In this document: positions 1-4,707 of the stretch, in pieces
Layout: each line of letters begins with the position of its first letter
Position numbering within the stretch: position 1 is the first letter of the stretch
DNA from: a virus
Taxonomy: Duplodnaviria > Heunggongvirae > Uroviricota > Caudoviricetes
Virus record (IMG/VR): IMGVR_UViG_2695420523_000008
Length of the DNA stretch: 4,707 nt
Strand: one strand, 5' to 3'
Program-made: the position numbers and the translations under genes
The notes under the pieces: generated by a model
Databases searched by the model: none
What the model saw: only the letters and a program-made list of their open reading frames with translations
What the model was told of the DNA's origin: nothing

Positions 1-60
1 CATGGTGCTGTCCTGTAAAGCAATGCGCCTGCGTTCCTCAAACTATGGCGCTGATATTGG

Positions 61-366
61 CTATTCATGCTCTTTGACCTTGCGTCGCTGGAGTTCTTCA
101 CGCGCGACGGTGACGAGTTGCCCGATCTCCTCGGCTGCTTTGATGCCGATTTGTTCGACCTTAGCCAGGGCATCCAGTGACGACACAAGGGGATTTTCTC
201 CGCTGCCTTCTGCTTGGCGGCGGGCTATTTCTCCGCGCATGGCGGTTACGATAAATCCGGCATTGCTTTCACCGTCCAGCTTAACGGATTCCATCCCTTG
301 CATAACATCTAGTGGGACTCTGACAGTTGTCAGTTGTGATTTTGCGTTTTTGTTAGCCGTTGCCAT
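61..366 (-). CDS. Putative ribbon-helix-helix (Arc/Mnt/CopG-like) transcriptional repressor, 101 aa
   Basis: ORF 61..366 on minus strand. AGGAG Shine-Dalgarno (complement of 375-379) lies 8 nt upstream of the ATG (complement of 364-366). The segment TTVRVPLDVMQGMESVKLDGESNAGFIVTAMRGEIARR fits the RHH pattern of beta-strand, helix, G-x-S-x-N turn, helix. It is transcribed divergently from the rightward operon and sits next to the palindromic operator-like sites. Family assignment is by motif pattern only. Confidence 0.6.
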   Translation of the reverse strand: MATANKNAKSQLTTVRVPLDVMQGMESVKLDGESNAGFIVTAMRGEIARRQAEGSGENPLVSSLDALAKVEQIGIKAAEEIGQLVTVAREELQRRKVKEHE

Positions 367-387
367 TTCTGAAACTCCTAATCATCG

Positions 388-465
388 GTGTGTTTCAGTA
401 TACACAAAAAAAGAAATACAAAAAGCCTTGACGTGTGTTTCATGCGCTCATAACATGAAACACAC
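388..465. promoter_or_regulatory. Operator-like sites: three copies of GTGTGTTTCA, including a perfect 12-bp inverted repeat
   Basis: GTGTGTTTCATG at 433-444 and its exact reverse complement CATGAAACACAC at 454-465, separated by a 9-bp spacer; a third copy of the half-site GTGTGTTTCA at 388-397, followed by the palindrome GTATAC at 398-403. The sites overlap the -35/-10 of the rightward promoter and the candidate -10 of the leftward promoter. Confidence 0.55.
428..456 (+). promoter_or_regulatory. Sigma70-like promoter for the rightward operon
   Basis: TTGACG at 428-433 (5/6 match to TTGACA), a 17-bp spacer, then TAACAT at 451-456 (4/6 match to TATAAT, with the conserved T1, A2 and T6 present). 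About 100 nt upstream of the first rightward start codon. Predicted from consensus only. Confidence 0.45.
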
Positions 466-493
466 CGAAAGGATTGTTGAAATACAAAGAGCA

Positions 494-527
494 ACGCCCC
501 GCAGTGCTGGGAACACATACGGGGCGT
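494..527 (+). other. Stem-loop in the leader of the rightward operon (8-bp GC-rich stem, 18-nt loop)
   Basis: ACGCCCCG at 494-501 pairs with CGGGGCGT at 520-527. No U-tract follows, so it is not a canonical intrinsic terminator. It lies between the predicted promoter and the first SD/ATG at 546-559. Confidence 0.3.
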
Positions 528-556
528 CTAACCAACAACGTAAACTAGGAGCCGTT

Positions 557-754
557 ATGGTTGCTGTAAATCATATACCACACCTTGTACACACACAAAC
601 GGCCTTTGTGTGGCGTTTTCTGGCACTGAGTGCCGGAGAATCTCAAATCATCCACGTAACCGCCTGGACGGAACGCGAAGCGCGTAGCCGTTGCCCGTCC
701 GGTTGTGTTGCTGTATTCGCTGCAAAAATCCGCCAGGGAGTGAGTCATGCTTAA
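557..754 (+). CDS. Hypothetical small protein, 65 aa (first gene of rightward operon)
   Basis: TAGGAG at 546-551, 5-nt spacer, ATG at 557. This is the in-frame 3' part of the long open frame 2..754, whose 5' part overlaps the better-supported minus-strand gene. Stop TAA at 752-754 overlaps the next start by 8 nt. A resemblance to Icd-like small proteins of P4-type elements is only a vague recollection and is unverified. Confidence 0.4.
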   Translation: MVAVNHIPHLVHTQTAFVWRFLALSAGESQIIHVTAWTEREARSRCPSGCVAVFAAKIRQGVSHA

Positions 755-932
755 AACCTTCCGTGTATTTGCCCGAGCTGTTAACCCAATAGGCCACACA
801 ATTGGTATCGCTCAGAATGTGAAGGCTGTTAATGTTCAGACGGCTATTGCTGCGGTGAGAAGCGAATCATCAGAATATGGCTTATCACAAGTCATTATTT
901 CAGCAGTGTATGAATTAAAAGAGGTGCATTAA
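747..932 (+). CDS. Hypothetical small protein, 61 aa
   Basis: ORF track 747..932. GGGAG at 736-740 precedes ATG 747 by 6 nt. Its stop TAA at 930-932 overlaps the next ATG at 932 (TAATG), indicating translational coupling. Confidence 0.5.
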   Translation: MLKTFRVFARAVNPIGHTIGIAQNVKAVNVQTAIAAVRSESSEYGLSQVIISAVYELKEVH

Positions 933-1123
933 TGCAGGAAATTACATTACACGAAGCCGCTGAACGTGCGCACCAGACAGAAATTATTTGCCGCCTTCTT
1001 GAGGTATACCCGAACAAAATTACAGATGCTGATATATCCGCACTGGCGAGCCTACTGGCGCGTCTTTCGGGAAGTGTCGCTAGTTTTTTGATTGAGGAAG
1101 AAAGTAAGCTGGTGGGGGATTAA
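932..1123 (+). CDS. Hypothetical small protein, 63 aa
   Basis: ORF track 932..1123. GAGGTG at 921-926 with a 5-nt spacer to ATG 932. Its stop TAA at 1121-1123 is immediately followed by the next ATG at 1124. Confidence 0.5.
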   Translation: MQEITLHEAAERAHQTEIICRLLEVYPNKITDADISALASLLARLSGSVASFLIEEESKLVGD

Positions 1124-1345
1124 ATGAATACAGAACGGGAAGTCTTTTTTAAATTGTTAGCATGTGCAGAAAGTTCATTAACTTTAAATAATTCAGCAAA
1201 AGCAATATTAAATATGTGGCTTGATTGCATAAATGACAATGAAGATGCAAATATTGCTTATGGCCTGTTGTCACTTATTGATGAATCAGCAGAAAAACTC
1301 AATGACGCAATAAATAGTGCCCTGCTATCAAATAAGTCGAGTTAA
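1124..1345 (+). CDS. Hypothetical small protein, 73 aa, encoded by a markedly AT-rich segment
   Basis: ORF track 1124..1345. G-rich SD-like GGTGGGGGA at 1111-1119 just upstream. The first 60 nt contain 19 G+C, roughly one-third GC, against about half in flanking genes. Protein is rich in N, L, S, D, E, A. Confidence 0.5.
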   Translation: MNTEREVFFKLLACAESSLTLNNSAKAILNMWLDCINDNEDANIAYGLLSLIDESAEKLNDAINSALLSNKSS

Positions 1346-1362
1346 GTCGAGGAATAAATAAT

Positions 1363-1662
1363 ATGGAAATGAAAAATTCTGGCTTTATTGCCAGCGGCCC
1401 CGCTCGACCTGAATTTATGAACGACGATATTTACCGCGATAAATACGGCGGCACGGTAACGATTAAAGGCGTGGCAGAACGGCGCATCACTTACCGCCGT
1501 GAGGGGTATAGCTATGACTGCGTGATGCCTGTTTATCAGTTCCGGCGTGATTTTTCCCTGGTATATGCCGCACCCCGCAGTAAGCCCATCAGCAGGGAAA
1601 AAGCGTGGGGAAATATCCAGAAAATGAAAACCATGATTAACGGATTCAGAGGTAAAAAATGA
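1363..1662 (+). CDS. Hypothetical protein, 99 aa, translationally coupled to the replication gene
   Basis: ORF track 1363..1662. AGGA at 1350-1353 about 9 nt upstream of ATG 1363. Its stop TGA at 1660-1662 overlaps ATG 1659 of the next gene (ATGA). The antisense ORF 1342..1692 is rejected in its favour. Confidence 0.55.
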   Translation: MEMKNSGFIASGPARPEFMNDDIYRDKYGGTVTIKGVAERRITYRREGYSYDCVMPVYQFRRDFSLVYAAPRSKPISREKAWGNIQKMKTMINGFRGKK

Positions 1663-3413
1663 AACTGGCACCGAACGTAAAACAGCAGTCACGCGGCATA
1701 AAACACAAAGGAACAGAAGTCATTATTTTTGCGGGTAGTGATGCCTGGGCACACGCGAAACAATGGCAGGAACATGATGCGCGTATGGCCGGAGATAATG
1801 AGCCTCCTGTGTGGCTTGGGGAGCAGCAGCTATCCGAACTGGATAATCTGCAAATTGTGCCGGAAGGCCGAAAATCAGCACGCATATACAGGGCCGGATA
1901 TCTTGCGCCTGTAATGATAAAGGCGATTGGTCAGAAGCTGGCGGCAGCAGGCGTACAGGATGCAAATTTTTATCCTGAGGGTATGCACGGCCAGGAGGTG
2001 CAGAACTGGCGCGAATATCTGGCCCGTGAACGCCAGAATCTTTCTGATGGTCTGGTCATTGAGCTTCCGGTAAAGCAAAAGGCGCAACTTTCGCAGATGG
2101 CGGACAGTGAGCGCGTGCAGTTGCTTGCCGATCGCTTTGATGGCGTTTGCGTACATCCTGAAAGTGAAATCGTTCACGTATGGCGCGGCGGGGTATGGTG
2201 TCCGGTCAGCACAATGGAACTTAGCCGCGAAATGGTGGCGATCTATTCAGAGCACAGGGCCACTTTCAGCAAGCGCGTAATCAATAACGCCGTGGAAGCG
2301 TTAAAAGTTATTGCCGAACCAATGGGCGAGCCGTCTGGCGATTTGCTGCCGTTCGCCAATGGTGCGCTTGACCTGAAAACGGGGGAATTTTCCCCGCACA
2401 CGCCGGAGAACTGGATCACCACGCACAACGGCATTGAGTACACGCCACCAGCACCAGGGGAGAACATCCGCGATAACGCGCCAAACTTTCATAAATGGCT
2501 TGAGCACGCAGCCGGAAAAGACCCGCGCAAGATGATGCGTATATGTGCCGCGCTGTACATGATTATGGCGAACCGGTACGACTGGCAGATGTTTATTGAG
2601 GCCACCGGAGACGGCGGGAGCGGTAAAAGTACATTCACACACATAGCCAGCCTTCTGGCAGGGAAACAGAACACGGTAAGCGCTGAAATGACATCGCTTG
2701 ATGATGCTGGTGGACGTGCGCAGGTTGTCGGGAGTCGTCTTATCGTCCTGGCTGACCAGCCGAAATATACAGGCGAAGGAACGGGCATCAAGAAAATCAC
2801 AGGCGGCGACCCCGTGGAAATTAACCCGAAATATGAAAAGCGTTTCACGGCGGTAATCAGGGCGGTGGTGCTGGCGACCAACAACAACCCGATGATATTC
2901 ACCGAACGGGCCGGAGGTGTGGCACGTCGTCGCGTGATTTTCCGTTTCGACAATATCGTCAGTGAGGCCGAAAAAGACAGGGAGCTACCGGAAAAGATTG
3001 CGGCTGAAATCCCCGTTATTATCCGCCGATTGCTGGCGAACTTTACCGACCCTGAGAAGGCACGGGCTTTACTACTGGAACAGCGTGACGGTGATGAAGC
3101 ACTGGCAATAAAGCAACAGACGGATCCGGTTATTGAGTTTTGCCAGTTCCTGAATTTTCTAGAGGAAGCGCGCGGCCTGATGATGGGTGGCGGTGGTGAT
3201 TCAGTGAAGTACACGACCAGGAACAGCCTTTACCGCGTCTATCTGGCGTTTATGGCATACGCGGGCAGGAGCAAACCGCTAAACGTGGCTGAGTTCAGCA
3301 AGGCCATGAAGCCAGCGGCGAAAGTTTACGGGCATGAATATATTACGCGAAAAGTTAAGGGAGTAACGCAGACCAACGCAATTACAACAGACGATTGCGA
3401 CGCGTTTTTATAA
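1659..3413 (+). CDS. Replication initiator with SF3-helicase core (P4 alpha C-terminal / D5-like family), 584 aa
   Basis: Long ORF 1659..3413. Walker A GDGGSGKST at residues 317-325 (nt 2607-2633); Walker B-like LIVLAD at residues 361-366; motif C VVLATNNN at residues 403-410. The roughly 40-residue spacing A to B to C is typical of SF3 helicases. AGAGGT SD lies about 6 nt upstream of the ATG. The N-terminal ~300 aa has no motif I can confidently assign to a primase class. Confidence 0.88.
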   Translation: MKLAPNVKQQSRGIKHKGTEVIIFAGSDAWAHAKQWQEHDARMAGDNEPPVWLGEQQLSELDNLQIVPEGRKSARIYRAGYLAPVMIKAIGQKLAAAGVQDANFYPEGMHGQEVQNWREYLARERQNLSDGLVIELPVKQKAQLSQMADSERVQLLADRFDGVCVHPESEIVHVWRGGVWCPVSTMELSREMVAIYSEHRATFSKRVINNAVEALKVIAEPMGEPSGDLLPFANGALDLKTGEFSPHTPENWITTHNGIEYTPPAPGENIRDNAPNFHKWLEHAAGKDPRKMMRICAALYMIMANRYDWQMFIEATGDGGSGKSTFTHIASLLAGKQNTVSAEMTSLDDAGGRAQVVGSRLIVLADQPKYTGEGTGIKKITGGDPVEINPKYEKRFTAVIRAVVLATNNNPMIFTERAGGVARRRVIFRFDNIVSEAEKDRELPEKIAAEIPVIIRRLLANFTDPEKARALLLEQRDGDEALAIKQQTDPVIEFCQFLNFLEEARGLMMGGGGDSVKYTTRNSLYRVYLAFMAYAGRSKPLNVAEFSKAMKPAAKVYGHEYITRKVKGVTQTNAITTDDCDAFL

Positions 3414-3426
3414 TTTTTTGTAAAAG

Positions 3427-3650
3427 CCATCTACCCCATCTACCTGAACGAAATAAACGCATATTATTCAACATGATAAGTGGGTATAGGGCTAGGTAGA
3501 AGGCTAATAAAAGCTCTCTACCTCTTCTACCTGATTTTATCAGTTTCAGGTAGCAGGGTAGACGGCAGGTAGAGGAGTCAAAAAAGCTATCTACCCGCTG
3601 AAAGCCGCGCCATTACTGACATGATGAGCATTCGGGTAGATGGGTAGAGG
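3427..3650. repeat. Iteron array; candidate origin of replication for the element
   Basis: GGTAG on the top strand at 3495, 3549, 3557, 3568, 3635 and 3643, and CTACC at 3431, 3440, 3518, 3527 and 3591: 11 copies in about 220 bp, where about 0.4 would be expected by chance for one 5-mer on either strand. A perfect tandem 9-mer CCATCTACC x2 at 3427-3444 is mirrored by the inverted pair GGGTAGATGGGTAGAGG at 3634-3650. AT-rich stretches at 3446-3490 and 3504-3513 lie between repeat clusters. Located directly 3' of the helicase gene. Confidence 0.6.
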
Positions 3651-3698
3651 GGGGGAGGCACAACTAAAAACTTTTTAAACGAGGGGGGGTGAAAATAA

Positions 3699-4592: not shown

Positions 4593-4707
4593 GGTAATGA
4601 CTCCAACTTATTGATAGTGTTTTATGTTCAGATAATGCCCGATGACTTTGTCATGCAGCTCCACCGATTTTGAGAACGACAGCGACTTCCGTCCCAGCCG
4701 TGCCAGG
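4593..4707 (-). mobile_element. IS1 insertion sequence, terminal 115 bp including the right inverted repeat; continues beyond the window
   Basis: GGTAATGACTCCAACTTATTGATAGTG from 4593 matches the IS1 terminal inverted repeat as I recall it, and the following sequence through 4707 matches the IS1 insB-proximal end. Recognised from memory of the IS1 sequence, not searched. Confidence 0.88.
4608..4707 (-). CDS. insB: IS1 transposase InsB, 3' end (partial; start lies outside the window)
   Basis: Minus-strand translation of 4706..4608 gives [32 protein letters not shown] followed by a stop (TAA, complement of 4608-4610), 15 nt inside the IS1 end. Absent from the ORF track because no start codon lies within the window. 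Confidence 0.8.

Follow-up and report, generated by a model that had tools for sequence, protein, structure and literature searches.

The question raised by the viral sequence analysed here (IMG/VR record IMGVR_UViG_2695420523_000008, Caudoviricetes; a stretch of 4,707 nucleotides, referred to as the window) is what is encoded by a chain of five small open reading frames (ORF1 to ORF5, positions 557 to 1,662) lying between a divergent regulatory switch and a replication gene. A preliminary description had recognised none of the five and had regarded them as the most likely carriers of undescribed function in a satellite element. The observation of the chain is confirmed here, and its interpretation is partly supported. 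The five ORFs, together with the primase-helicase gene that follows them, probably constitute the early (replication) operon of a Gram-negative helper-embedded phage-inducible chromosomal island (PICI) laid out on the plan of the P4 left operon, because the gene order fits the four-zone organisation (Integration, Bro, Replication and Late) of helper-embedded and Gram-negative PICIs (Tommasini, Mageeney and Williams 2023, PMC10111431). The coordinates of the features are collected in Table 1.

The coordinates and lengths reported for the five ORFs (65, 61, 63, 73 and 99 aa) are all borne out by the sequence, as are the junctions: ATGCTTAA between ORF1 and ORF2, with an 8-nt overlap (747-754), TAATG (930-934) between ORF2 and ORF3, TAA-ATG (1121-1126) between ORF3 and ORF4, and ATGA (1659-1662), shared by the stop of ORF5 and the start of the primase gene. 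ORF4 and ORF5 are separated by a 17-nt gap (1346-1362), and the spacing along the chain is -8/-1/0/+17/-4 nt, with all ORFs on the + strand. Each ORF carries its own Shine-Dalgarno (SD) sequence, as had been claimed, with a motif 4-9 nt 5' of every start (AGGAG at 547-551 for ORF1, GGGAG at 736-740 for ORF2, GAGG at 921-924 for ORF3, GGGGGA at 1114-1119 for ORF4, GAGGA at 1349-1353 for ORF5 and AGAGG at 1648-1652 for the primase). The chain is indeed bordered by the divergent switch on one side and the primase-helicase gene on the other, and no convincing + strand terminator was found from 557 to 3413, where only a weak hairpin occurs at 592-612. Stoichiometric co-expression, as deduced from the overlaps, is a reasonable inference from this arrangement.

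The five ORFs are genuine, conserved genes under purifying selection, far beyond what chance would produce, as evident from their PHROG matches, low ratios of nonsynonymous to synonymous substitution (dN/dS) and recurring junction classes. Each of the five matches a PHROG family with an E value of 1e-28 to 9e-46. The dN/dS values against diverged relatives are 0.12-0.34 for ORF1, ORF2, ORF3 and ORF5; the comparison is saturated for ORF4 (dN ~0.8), the frame of which is still open. Junctions in related operons show the same overlap classes again (-8, -11, -4 and -1), and the DUF4222 gene, to which ORF5 corresponds, is joined to the replicase gene by ATGA in 7/7 measured operons having both. The block of ORF2 to ORF4 is present at a coverage of at least 80% in 130 of 5426 complete E. 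coli genomes, in chromosomes without exception, and in the sampled rows its annotation shows three intact genes. The operon plan also recurs among related islands, so that the conservation and synteny check proposed in the preliminary description came out in favour of the chain.

At least 80% of the window's length is matched in 55 complete E. coli genomes. The window corresponds to positions 15001-19593 of locus L001, in which the island occupies 12396-23279 (~10.9 kb) and is flanked by fragments of a portal gene (11562-12395 and 23280-24062) on the same strand; the same flanks occur in locus L002. The satellite setting claimed earlier is thereby borne out: as known from its genes alone, the island is a helper-embedded PICI within the portal gene of a lambdoid prophage, a type already published. 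The first half of the island in L001 encodes, in order, an integrase, an AlpA-like helix-turn-helix (HTH) protein, BRO-N, the leftward YlcI/YnfO gene, an Icd-like protein and three hypothetical proteins; the second half encodes DUF4222, the primase, a hypothetical protein, a single-stranded DNA-binding protein (SSB), homologues of major capsid and head-decoration proteins, an HTH protein and a small terminase. L001 12592-22473 shows the features that define Gram-negative PICIs (Fillol-Salom 2018), namely a size of ~10-15 kb, an integrase, an alpA-type regulator, a primase-replicase gene (pri-rep), a putative replication origin and a module for packaging or capsid redirection, with no tail or lysis genes. 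The late zone is of the EcCICFT073 type. The prototype 11capE of helper-embedded PICIs sits in a capsid gene, whereas the island of the window sits in a portal gene; that work (PMC10111431) gives no individual description of the small ORFs that separate Bro zone and primase. A DNA search with window positions 380-1700 against 50,697 phage records returned zero matches. The operon type and the island type are already published, and proteins identical to those of the window are already in RefSeq.

The operon comparison covered 12 loci and a further 8 from species representatives of other genera. The same plan was found in EcCICFT073, in CP-933C/O-island 51 (OI-51) of O157 and in 17 other loci from Escherichia, Shigella, Klebsiella, Enterobacter, Cedecea, Hafnia and metagenome-assembled genomes (MAGs). 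As in EcCICFT073 and CP-933C, an Icd-like gene is followed by small ORFs, an ORF4-family gene, a DUF4222/RgdR gene (ECs1581, C1493) and a replicase gene. The Icd-like gene stands first in the operon without exception (20 loci), and DUF4222 is last before the replicase in 11/12 of the first loci and in L016, L019, L022 and L023. The window differs from EcCICFT073 and CP-933C in its integrase and attachment site (the portal gene here, the potAB-pepT-roxA/phoQ locus in L003 and L004), and in the number and kinds of cassette genes. ORF1 and ORF2 are 96.9% and 96.7% identical to the corresponding O157 Sakai proteins. Synonymous divergence (dS) between the window and L003 (O157 Sakai) amounts to 0.02 for ORF2, 0.20 for ORF1, 0.59 for ORF5 and 0.70 for ORF3, and is saturated for ORF4; such a mosaic between neighbouring genes implies frequent recombination at the overlapping gene junctions.

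The statement that none of the five ORFs can be recognised fails for two of them. Profile searches, the check put forward in the preliminary description, place ORF1 in the Icd/Kil family (NF033153 of NCBIfam) and ORF5 in DUF4222/RgdR (Pfam), and ORF2 to ORF4 match PHROG families only. Undescribed function can accordingly be ascribed to ORF2, ORF3 and ORF4 but no longer to ORF1 and ORF5, which belong to named families, and the guess that the chain holds a host-takeover factor is upheld for ORF1 by its family membership. The NF033153 model ('host cell division inhibitor Icd-like', cut-off 25) gives ORF1 63.7 bits, P4 Kil 76.1 bits and P1 Icd 39.3 bits, and P4 Kil matches phrog_1743 as ORF1 does. 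The reference P1 Icd was taken from the P1 immI record (L014 323-565), and P4 Kil is the last 65 codons of a frame formerly annotated 'cI gene product' (L013). Pairwise comparison of ORF1 with P1 Icd gave 2.9e-5 in a small database, and the two share the motif F[IV]WRF...E.EARS..P.G. On these sequence grounds ORF1 is a member of the Icd/Kil family. ORF1, like its counterparts in all 20 loci, is the first translated cistron behind an immunity-controlled promoter and overlaps the next gene. P1 Icd exerts a reversible block of cell division. Overexpressed P4 Kil kills the cell (summary in PMC10111431), and by analogy ORF1 would inhibit division or kill.

Searches of PDB sequences with ORF1 and with its profile gave nothing significant. 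The weak hairpin at 592-612, inside ORF1, was considered as a translation-sensitive attenuator and rejected, as it occurs only in the HTQTAFVWRF subtype and is missing in the other Icd-like subtypes. In two loci (L007 2196-2561 and L019 ~5850-6159) the Icd-like protein resembles two tandem domains, KFIYTFLAL...VHVAADTLVDARKM and then NFIWRFIALS... The PHROG families 1743, 6196 and 6928 are labelled 'transcriptional repressor', although their proteins are Kil/Eta/Icd-like. The label was probably inherited from the obsolete annotation of a P4 cI-region protein (L013 8168-8584, - strand); the product of the P4 cI region is an RNA.

The resemblance to the P4 left operon (PLE/PLL, CI RNA, kil in eta, epsilon, orf151, cnr, alpha) extends over the whole chain. 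In both, a 65-aa Icd/Kil gene comes first and forms the end of a much longer frame beginning 5' of the promoter; several small genes and then a P4-type primase-helicase gene follow, and an alpA/vis-like gene lies upstream. Unlike P4, the window has no CI/C4 RNA and has a divergent YlcI/YnfO-like gene with operator repeats, its middle genes lack homology to epsilon (PF25738) and cnr (DUF5375), and its long frame runs antisense through a protein gene. Homology of ORF5 to P4 orf151 was also considered and rejected; hhalign gave P=0.0022 over 46 columns, a weak lead only, and Pfam keeps orf151 outside DUF4222. The P1 immI operon (c4, icd, ant1/ant2) is similar in that its Icd-family first cistron overlaps the next gene, and a PICI relative, locus L010, provides a link with isrK and C4 directly 5' of the Icd-like gene. 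The window differs from immI in having neither a c4 RNA nor a downstream antirepressor, and its downstream genes are linked to replication.

PICIs are known carriers of defence genes, which counts for an alternative in which the operon mainly serves abortive infection or superinfection exclusion: an incoming phage protein would trigger it, Icd-like arrest would protect the population, and replication would be secondary. In ECOR61, six linked genes, including Icd-like and DNA primase genes, cause growth arrest when triggered by the phage accessory gene orf24 (Silas et al., bioRxiv 10.1101/2023.04.06.535777), and superinfection exclusion is the reading of its authors. The number of genes equals that of ORF1 to ORF5 plus the primase, and gene-for-gene homology of the ECOR61 locus could not be confirmed. 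Icd-like proteins are also listed for most elements of a survey of E. cloacae satellites (PMC13612085). However, no ORF of the window matches a defence system in PADLOC, and a gene order ending in the replicase is found universally in PICIs and also in P4, where it constitutes the operon for replication. Arrest would be equally expected if the phage protein merely induced the island, and a replication operon would account for the ECOR61 arrest in the same way, as the trigger may be one that induces the island. The defence module is therefore considered unlikely.

ORF5 scores 80.9 bits against PF13973 (DUF4222, cut-off 27) and is 71.7% identical over 99 aa to RgdR/ECs1581 (the coding sequence annotated rgdR in O157 Sakai), which identifies it as an RgdR-family DUF4222 protein with a predicted SH3/Tudor-like barrel. 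ORF5 gave nothing significant against PDB sequences, and BFVD returned only uncharacterised small barrels and DUF1653. RgdR is a protein of 99 aa that activates LEE1 (in LEE, the enterocyte effacement locus) and type III secretion (T3S), represses motility and binds DNA non-specifically (PMC3378721). It affects colonisation in sheep (PMC3378721; review PMC10877973) and has been reported in all analysed E. coli PICIs (PMC6092414). By its likeness to RgdR, ORF5 may exert similar effects on LEE1 and motility.

The same properties of RgdR would suit small ORFs that act as host-benefit 'moron' regulators, RgdR and its neighbours being kept for tuning virulence and motility genes; its action on LEE1, T3S, motility and sheep colonisation (PMC3378721; PMC10877973) is what such a role would predict. 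This explanation is improbable, however, for a host lineage that includes many LEE-negative commensal and animal strains. In all seven measured operons with both genes, an ATGA joins DUF4222 to the replicase irrespective of whether the latter is a primase, DUF927 or RepA helicase, which speaks for a function within the island itself. ORF5 has no RGD motif.

The middle genes fall into two classes. ORF2 and ORF3 are exchangeable cassettes: ORF2 occurs in 4/12 compared operons and ORF3 in 5/12, including the first small ORF of EcCICFT073, and both alternate with at least 2 other cassette families, so that 1-4 genes lie between the Icd-like and ORF4-family genes. The ORF4 family always lies directly 5' of DUF4222 or, in operons lacking DUF4222, directly 5' of the primase, and was found also in L016, L017, L020 and L021. 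All 672 homologues of ORF4 are annotated 'hypothetical' and none has a Pfam domain; the AlphaFold2 model (mean pLDDT 91.9, the predicted local distance difference test) consists of helices 4-35 and 39-71, and the ORF4 profile gave nothing significant against PDB sequences. ORF3 is predicted, from its sequence pattern and without a model, to be all-alpha. Among 1.84 billion representative proteins it gave 46 matches at E of at most 0.001, a few of them long repeat proteins taken as spurious, and 39 short homologues (55-95 aa) align with the common motif M..EITLEQAAE.AHQAE.I..L.E.YP. A relationship of ORF3 to the first small ORF of the Klebsiella and Enterobacter islands was considered and rejected, the ORF3 profile detecting no link; the impression from its sequence pattern that ORF2 is a divergent copy of the Icd fold found no support in hhalign.

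Gain, loss and breakage of cassettes (an internal stop in the ORF3 homologue of L008, a frameshift in a cassette of L011) and the very fast evolution of ORF4 noted above would be expected if some of ORF2 to ORF4 were drifting filler, open by chance or by the needs of coupling. Such drift is very improbable, as dN/dS is 0.26-0.30 for ORF2 and ORF3 and their PHROG families are strong, the distinct representative clusters of ORF3 number in the dozens and share a conserved motif, and ORF4 retains both its place and a confidently predicted fold at 25-40% identity. The intactness of the three genes in the sampled rows, and the occurrence of the block in 130 genomes, also speak against filler. As candidates for accessory factors, ORF2 to ORF4 are reasonable but nothing out of the ordinary.

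The control region lies between the divergent genes. The YlcI/YnfO-like gene has its own AGGAG 8 nt before its ATG on the - strand, and the element at 428-456 is the only + strand sigma-70-like promoter in the window. An operator-like half-site, GTGTGTTTCA, occurs in three copies (388-397, 433-442 and, inverted, 456-468) that bracket the -35 and -10 hexamers and form inverted repeats of 13 nt and 26 nt. The ~65 nt preceding the ORF1 start are conserved in an alignment of 12 diverse PICIs as a hairpin, a tail and then the SD sequence. RNAalifold predicts 9 pairs for the leader hairpin, 3 of them with compensatory changes, and 93.5% of the alignment cells are paired; the covariation score is 0.195 as compared to 0.056 for shuffled alignments (0/500 reach 0.195) and at most 0.054 for slid controls. 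The conservation could be partly at the level of a peptide, since the leader sits within the long frame; the compensatory changes argue for RNA structure in the leader rather than peptide conservation alone. A C4/CI-type immunity RNA in the leader was considered and rejected, as Rfam gave no match at E of at most 1 over the whole window while the positive controls P1 and L010 were detected. In L010, isrK and C4 RNAs fill the leader position immediately 5' of the Icd-like gene. Pairs of isrK and C4 antisense RNAs lie inside 'ash family' ORFs at L002 4948-5136 and L010 2703-2888; the L002 pair belongs to a different mobile element adjoining the island.

The frame that ends in ORF1 is open far upstream. 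In L001 it extends from 14681 to 15754, starting inside the 3' end of the BRO-N gene, with 0 stops, the other two + frames having 20 and 17. In 14/20 related loci from at least 7 genera (window/L001, L004, L005, L007-L010, L012, L017-L021 and L023, which include Cedecea, Hafnia, Enterobacter, Klebsiella and one MAG) it stays open over 279-475 codons (837-1425 nt), and it usually begins at or just past the alpA stop. In these 14 loci there are 0 stops in the Icd frame against 13-30 in each other + frame, and composition-preserving shuffles yielded zero stops in 0/2000 cases for each locus. The frame passes antisense through the ylcI-like gene, itself well formed, with the wobble positions of both coinciding, and crosses the AT-rich promoter/operator region (window 367-556) with 0 stops as compared to 6 and 3. 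The helper prophage's own ylcI region, which is not followed by an Icd gene, has 9-11 stops per + frame.

The arrangement in the window is that of the nested kil/eta type of P4, in which a short gene with its own ribosome-binding site (RBS) is the 3' end of an ORF starting 5' of the promoter, and a conserved internal ATG with an SD sequence giving a 61-67 aa product is present in 17/19 related loci and in P4. In P4, Kil is the end of eta; eta translation, in coupling with the alpA homologue vis, keeps transcripts from the upstream promoter from terminating prematurely (summary in PMC10111431). In CFT073-type islands the N-terminus of the long frame is weakly like Bro-N (E 0.07), and in L010 the frame holds a Phage_ASH match spanning the isrK and C4 RNA genes. 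Translation of the long frame in the island of the window is unproven.

A further, tentative possibility combines three parts: the long frame would be a translated ribosome shield, the leader an undescribed cis-regulatory RNA, and ORF4 and RgdR a conserved pair. By analogy with P4 eta, AlpA-driven transcripts may then cross the switch without Rho termination, and the switch would be a dual-coding region; the leader RNA may take the place of the isrK/C4 immunity RNAs of other PICIs, P1 and P4; and the helical hairpin of ORF4 and the Tudor-like barrel of RgdR may act on the replicase or on RNA polymerase. A specialist might be surprised by two parts of the locus only, the eta-like frame over the repressor gene and the hairpin of the leader.

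If the chain is the early operon of the island, transcription would start at the operator-flanked promoter, held off by the divergent YlcI/YnfO-like protein, and after helper induction could additionally read in from the AlpA-activated unit upstream. AlpA activates downstream genes in EcCICFT073 and is itself helper-induced (PMC6092414). Ribosomes on the long frame would then keep Rho off the transcripts that read in, in the manner of eta translation in P4; translation of ORF1 would then open the chain, and the downstream cistrons would be translated by coupling through to the primase. ORF1 would arrest host division like P1 Icd, and would be toxic like P4 Kil if overproduced, the cell being held during replication and packaging of the island. 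ORF5/RgdR would be a small basic protein binding DNA or RNA polymerase and made with the replicase, its effects on LEE and motility being by-products; ORF4 would be a conserved partner of ORF5 or an accessory factor of the replicase, and ORF2 and ORF3 strain-variable accessory factors aimed at the helper or the host. YlcI repression, Rho protection, division arrest and the roles of ORF2 to ORF5 in the island cycle are all inferences.

Several observations weigh against this interpretation. BLASTP gives no alignment of ORF1 with P4 Kil or with the old P4 'cI' ORF, and hhalign of ORF1 with P4 Kil reaches only P=0.0017; as the pairwise methods are weak, the link to P4 Kil rests on the shared curated hidden Markov models (NF033153 and phrog_1743). 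ORF5 differs from the RgdR of CP-933C/O-island 51 at residues 20-22 (window 1420-1428), which read N20-D21-D22 instead of RGD, at a position where G21 is conserved in at least 90% of 27 aligned homologues; in RgdR, a change of R20 to N lowers T3S activation (Flockhart et al., PMC3378721). ORF2 to ORF4 have no match in Pfam, NCBIfam, PADLOC or PDB sequences, and Foldseek finds no match to ORF4 in the PDB at E of at most 1e-3, only generic helical hairpins. The long frame is absent from 6/20 loci and has no convincing start in L001, where the first candidates (GTG 14684 and TTG 14708) fall within the last part of BRO-N. By Rfam, the window lacks the c4/CI antisense RNA by which icd and kil are controlled in P1 and P4, so that control must differ from that of P1 and P4. 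The YlcI/YnfO-like protein is a putative repressor of the switch, a role guessed from gene location and from the operator repeats.

Table 1. Features of the window, by position
Feature	Position	Strand	Remarks
Long stop-free frame ending in ORF1, P4 eta-like	2..754	+	357 codons in the full island; begins 5' of the window
YlcI/YnfO-family gene, 101 aa, divergent	61..366	-	NF041551 YlcI_YnfO_N 1.6e-17; phrog_6522 1.5e-64 full length; WP_000179580.1
Switch region	385..468	.	sigma-70-like promoter TTGACG-17-TAACAT, 428-456
Conserved leader element	494..540	+	hairpin 494-527 and invariant tail CTAACCA.CAACG 528-540, just 5' of the ORF1 RBS
ORF1, 65 aa, Icd/Kil family, first cistron	557..754	+	NF033153 1.2e-17; phrog_1743 2.4e-22
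ORF2, 61 aa, cassette gene	747..932	+	phrog_3672 9.1e-46; dN/dS 0.26 vs L008
ORF3, 63 aa, cassette gene	932..1123	+	phrog_1478 2.5e-34; dN/dS 0.28-0.30
ORF4, 73 aa, two-helix hairpin, core gene	1124..1345	+	family in 11/12 operons, 25-40% identity
ORF5, 99 aa, DUF4222, RgdR family, ATGA-coupled to the primase gene	1363..1662	+	PF13973
P4-type primase-helicase, 584 aa (D5_N, DUF5906, Pox_D5)	1659..3413	+	TIGR01613 109 bits; last cistron of the chain

The surroundings of the operon show some further features. Iteron-like direct repeats occupy window positions 3421-3651, between the primase gene and the next ORF, with CTACC/GGTAG units ~73-87 nt apart; as judged from their sequence they are probably the replication origin of the island and are regarded as a candidate. 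The last 114 bases of the window (4594-4707) are an IS1 end, which cuts the island off after the SSB gene in the source strain; this end is the reason for the thousands of E. coli records that match. Outside the window, on its upstream side, L001 14733-14757 forms a GC-rich hairpin followed by a T-run only on the - strand, and an unannotated 59-aa ORF on the - strand lies at L001 14824-15003, downstream of the ylcI-like gene; a small gene is annotated at the matching position in CFT073, L005 and L006. The hairpin and the 59-aa ORF suggest a leftward two-gene operon with its own terminator.

The gain for annotation is that two 'unknowns' of the chain are resolved, ORF1 as Icd/Kil-type and ORF5 as RgdR, and that a misleading PHROG label is explained. 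One plan of the early operon is common to P4, P1 immI and the Gram-negative PICIs, with a fixed frame of Icd/Kil, the ORF4-family hairpin, DUF4222 and the replicase and with exchangeable cassettes between; the cassettes are a sensible place to seek new helper- or host-directed factors. The long frame and the leader hairpin give concrete handles on how the islands switch on. That RgdR is made together with the replicase suggests that its effects on virulence genes are a side effect of a job linked to replication or transcription, which, if true, reframes the influence of O-island 51 on the virulence of enterohaemorrhagic E. coli (EHEC).

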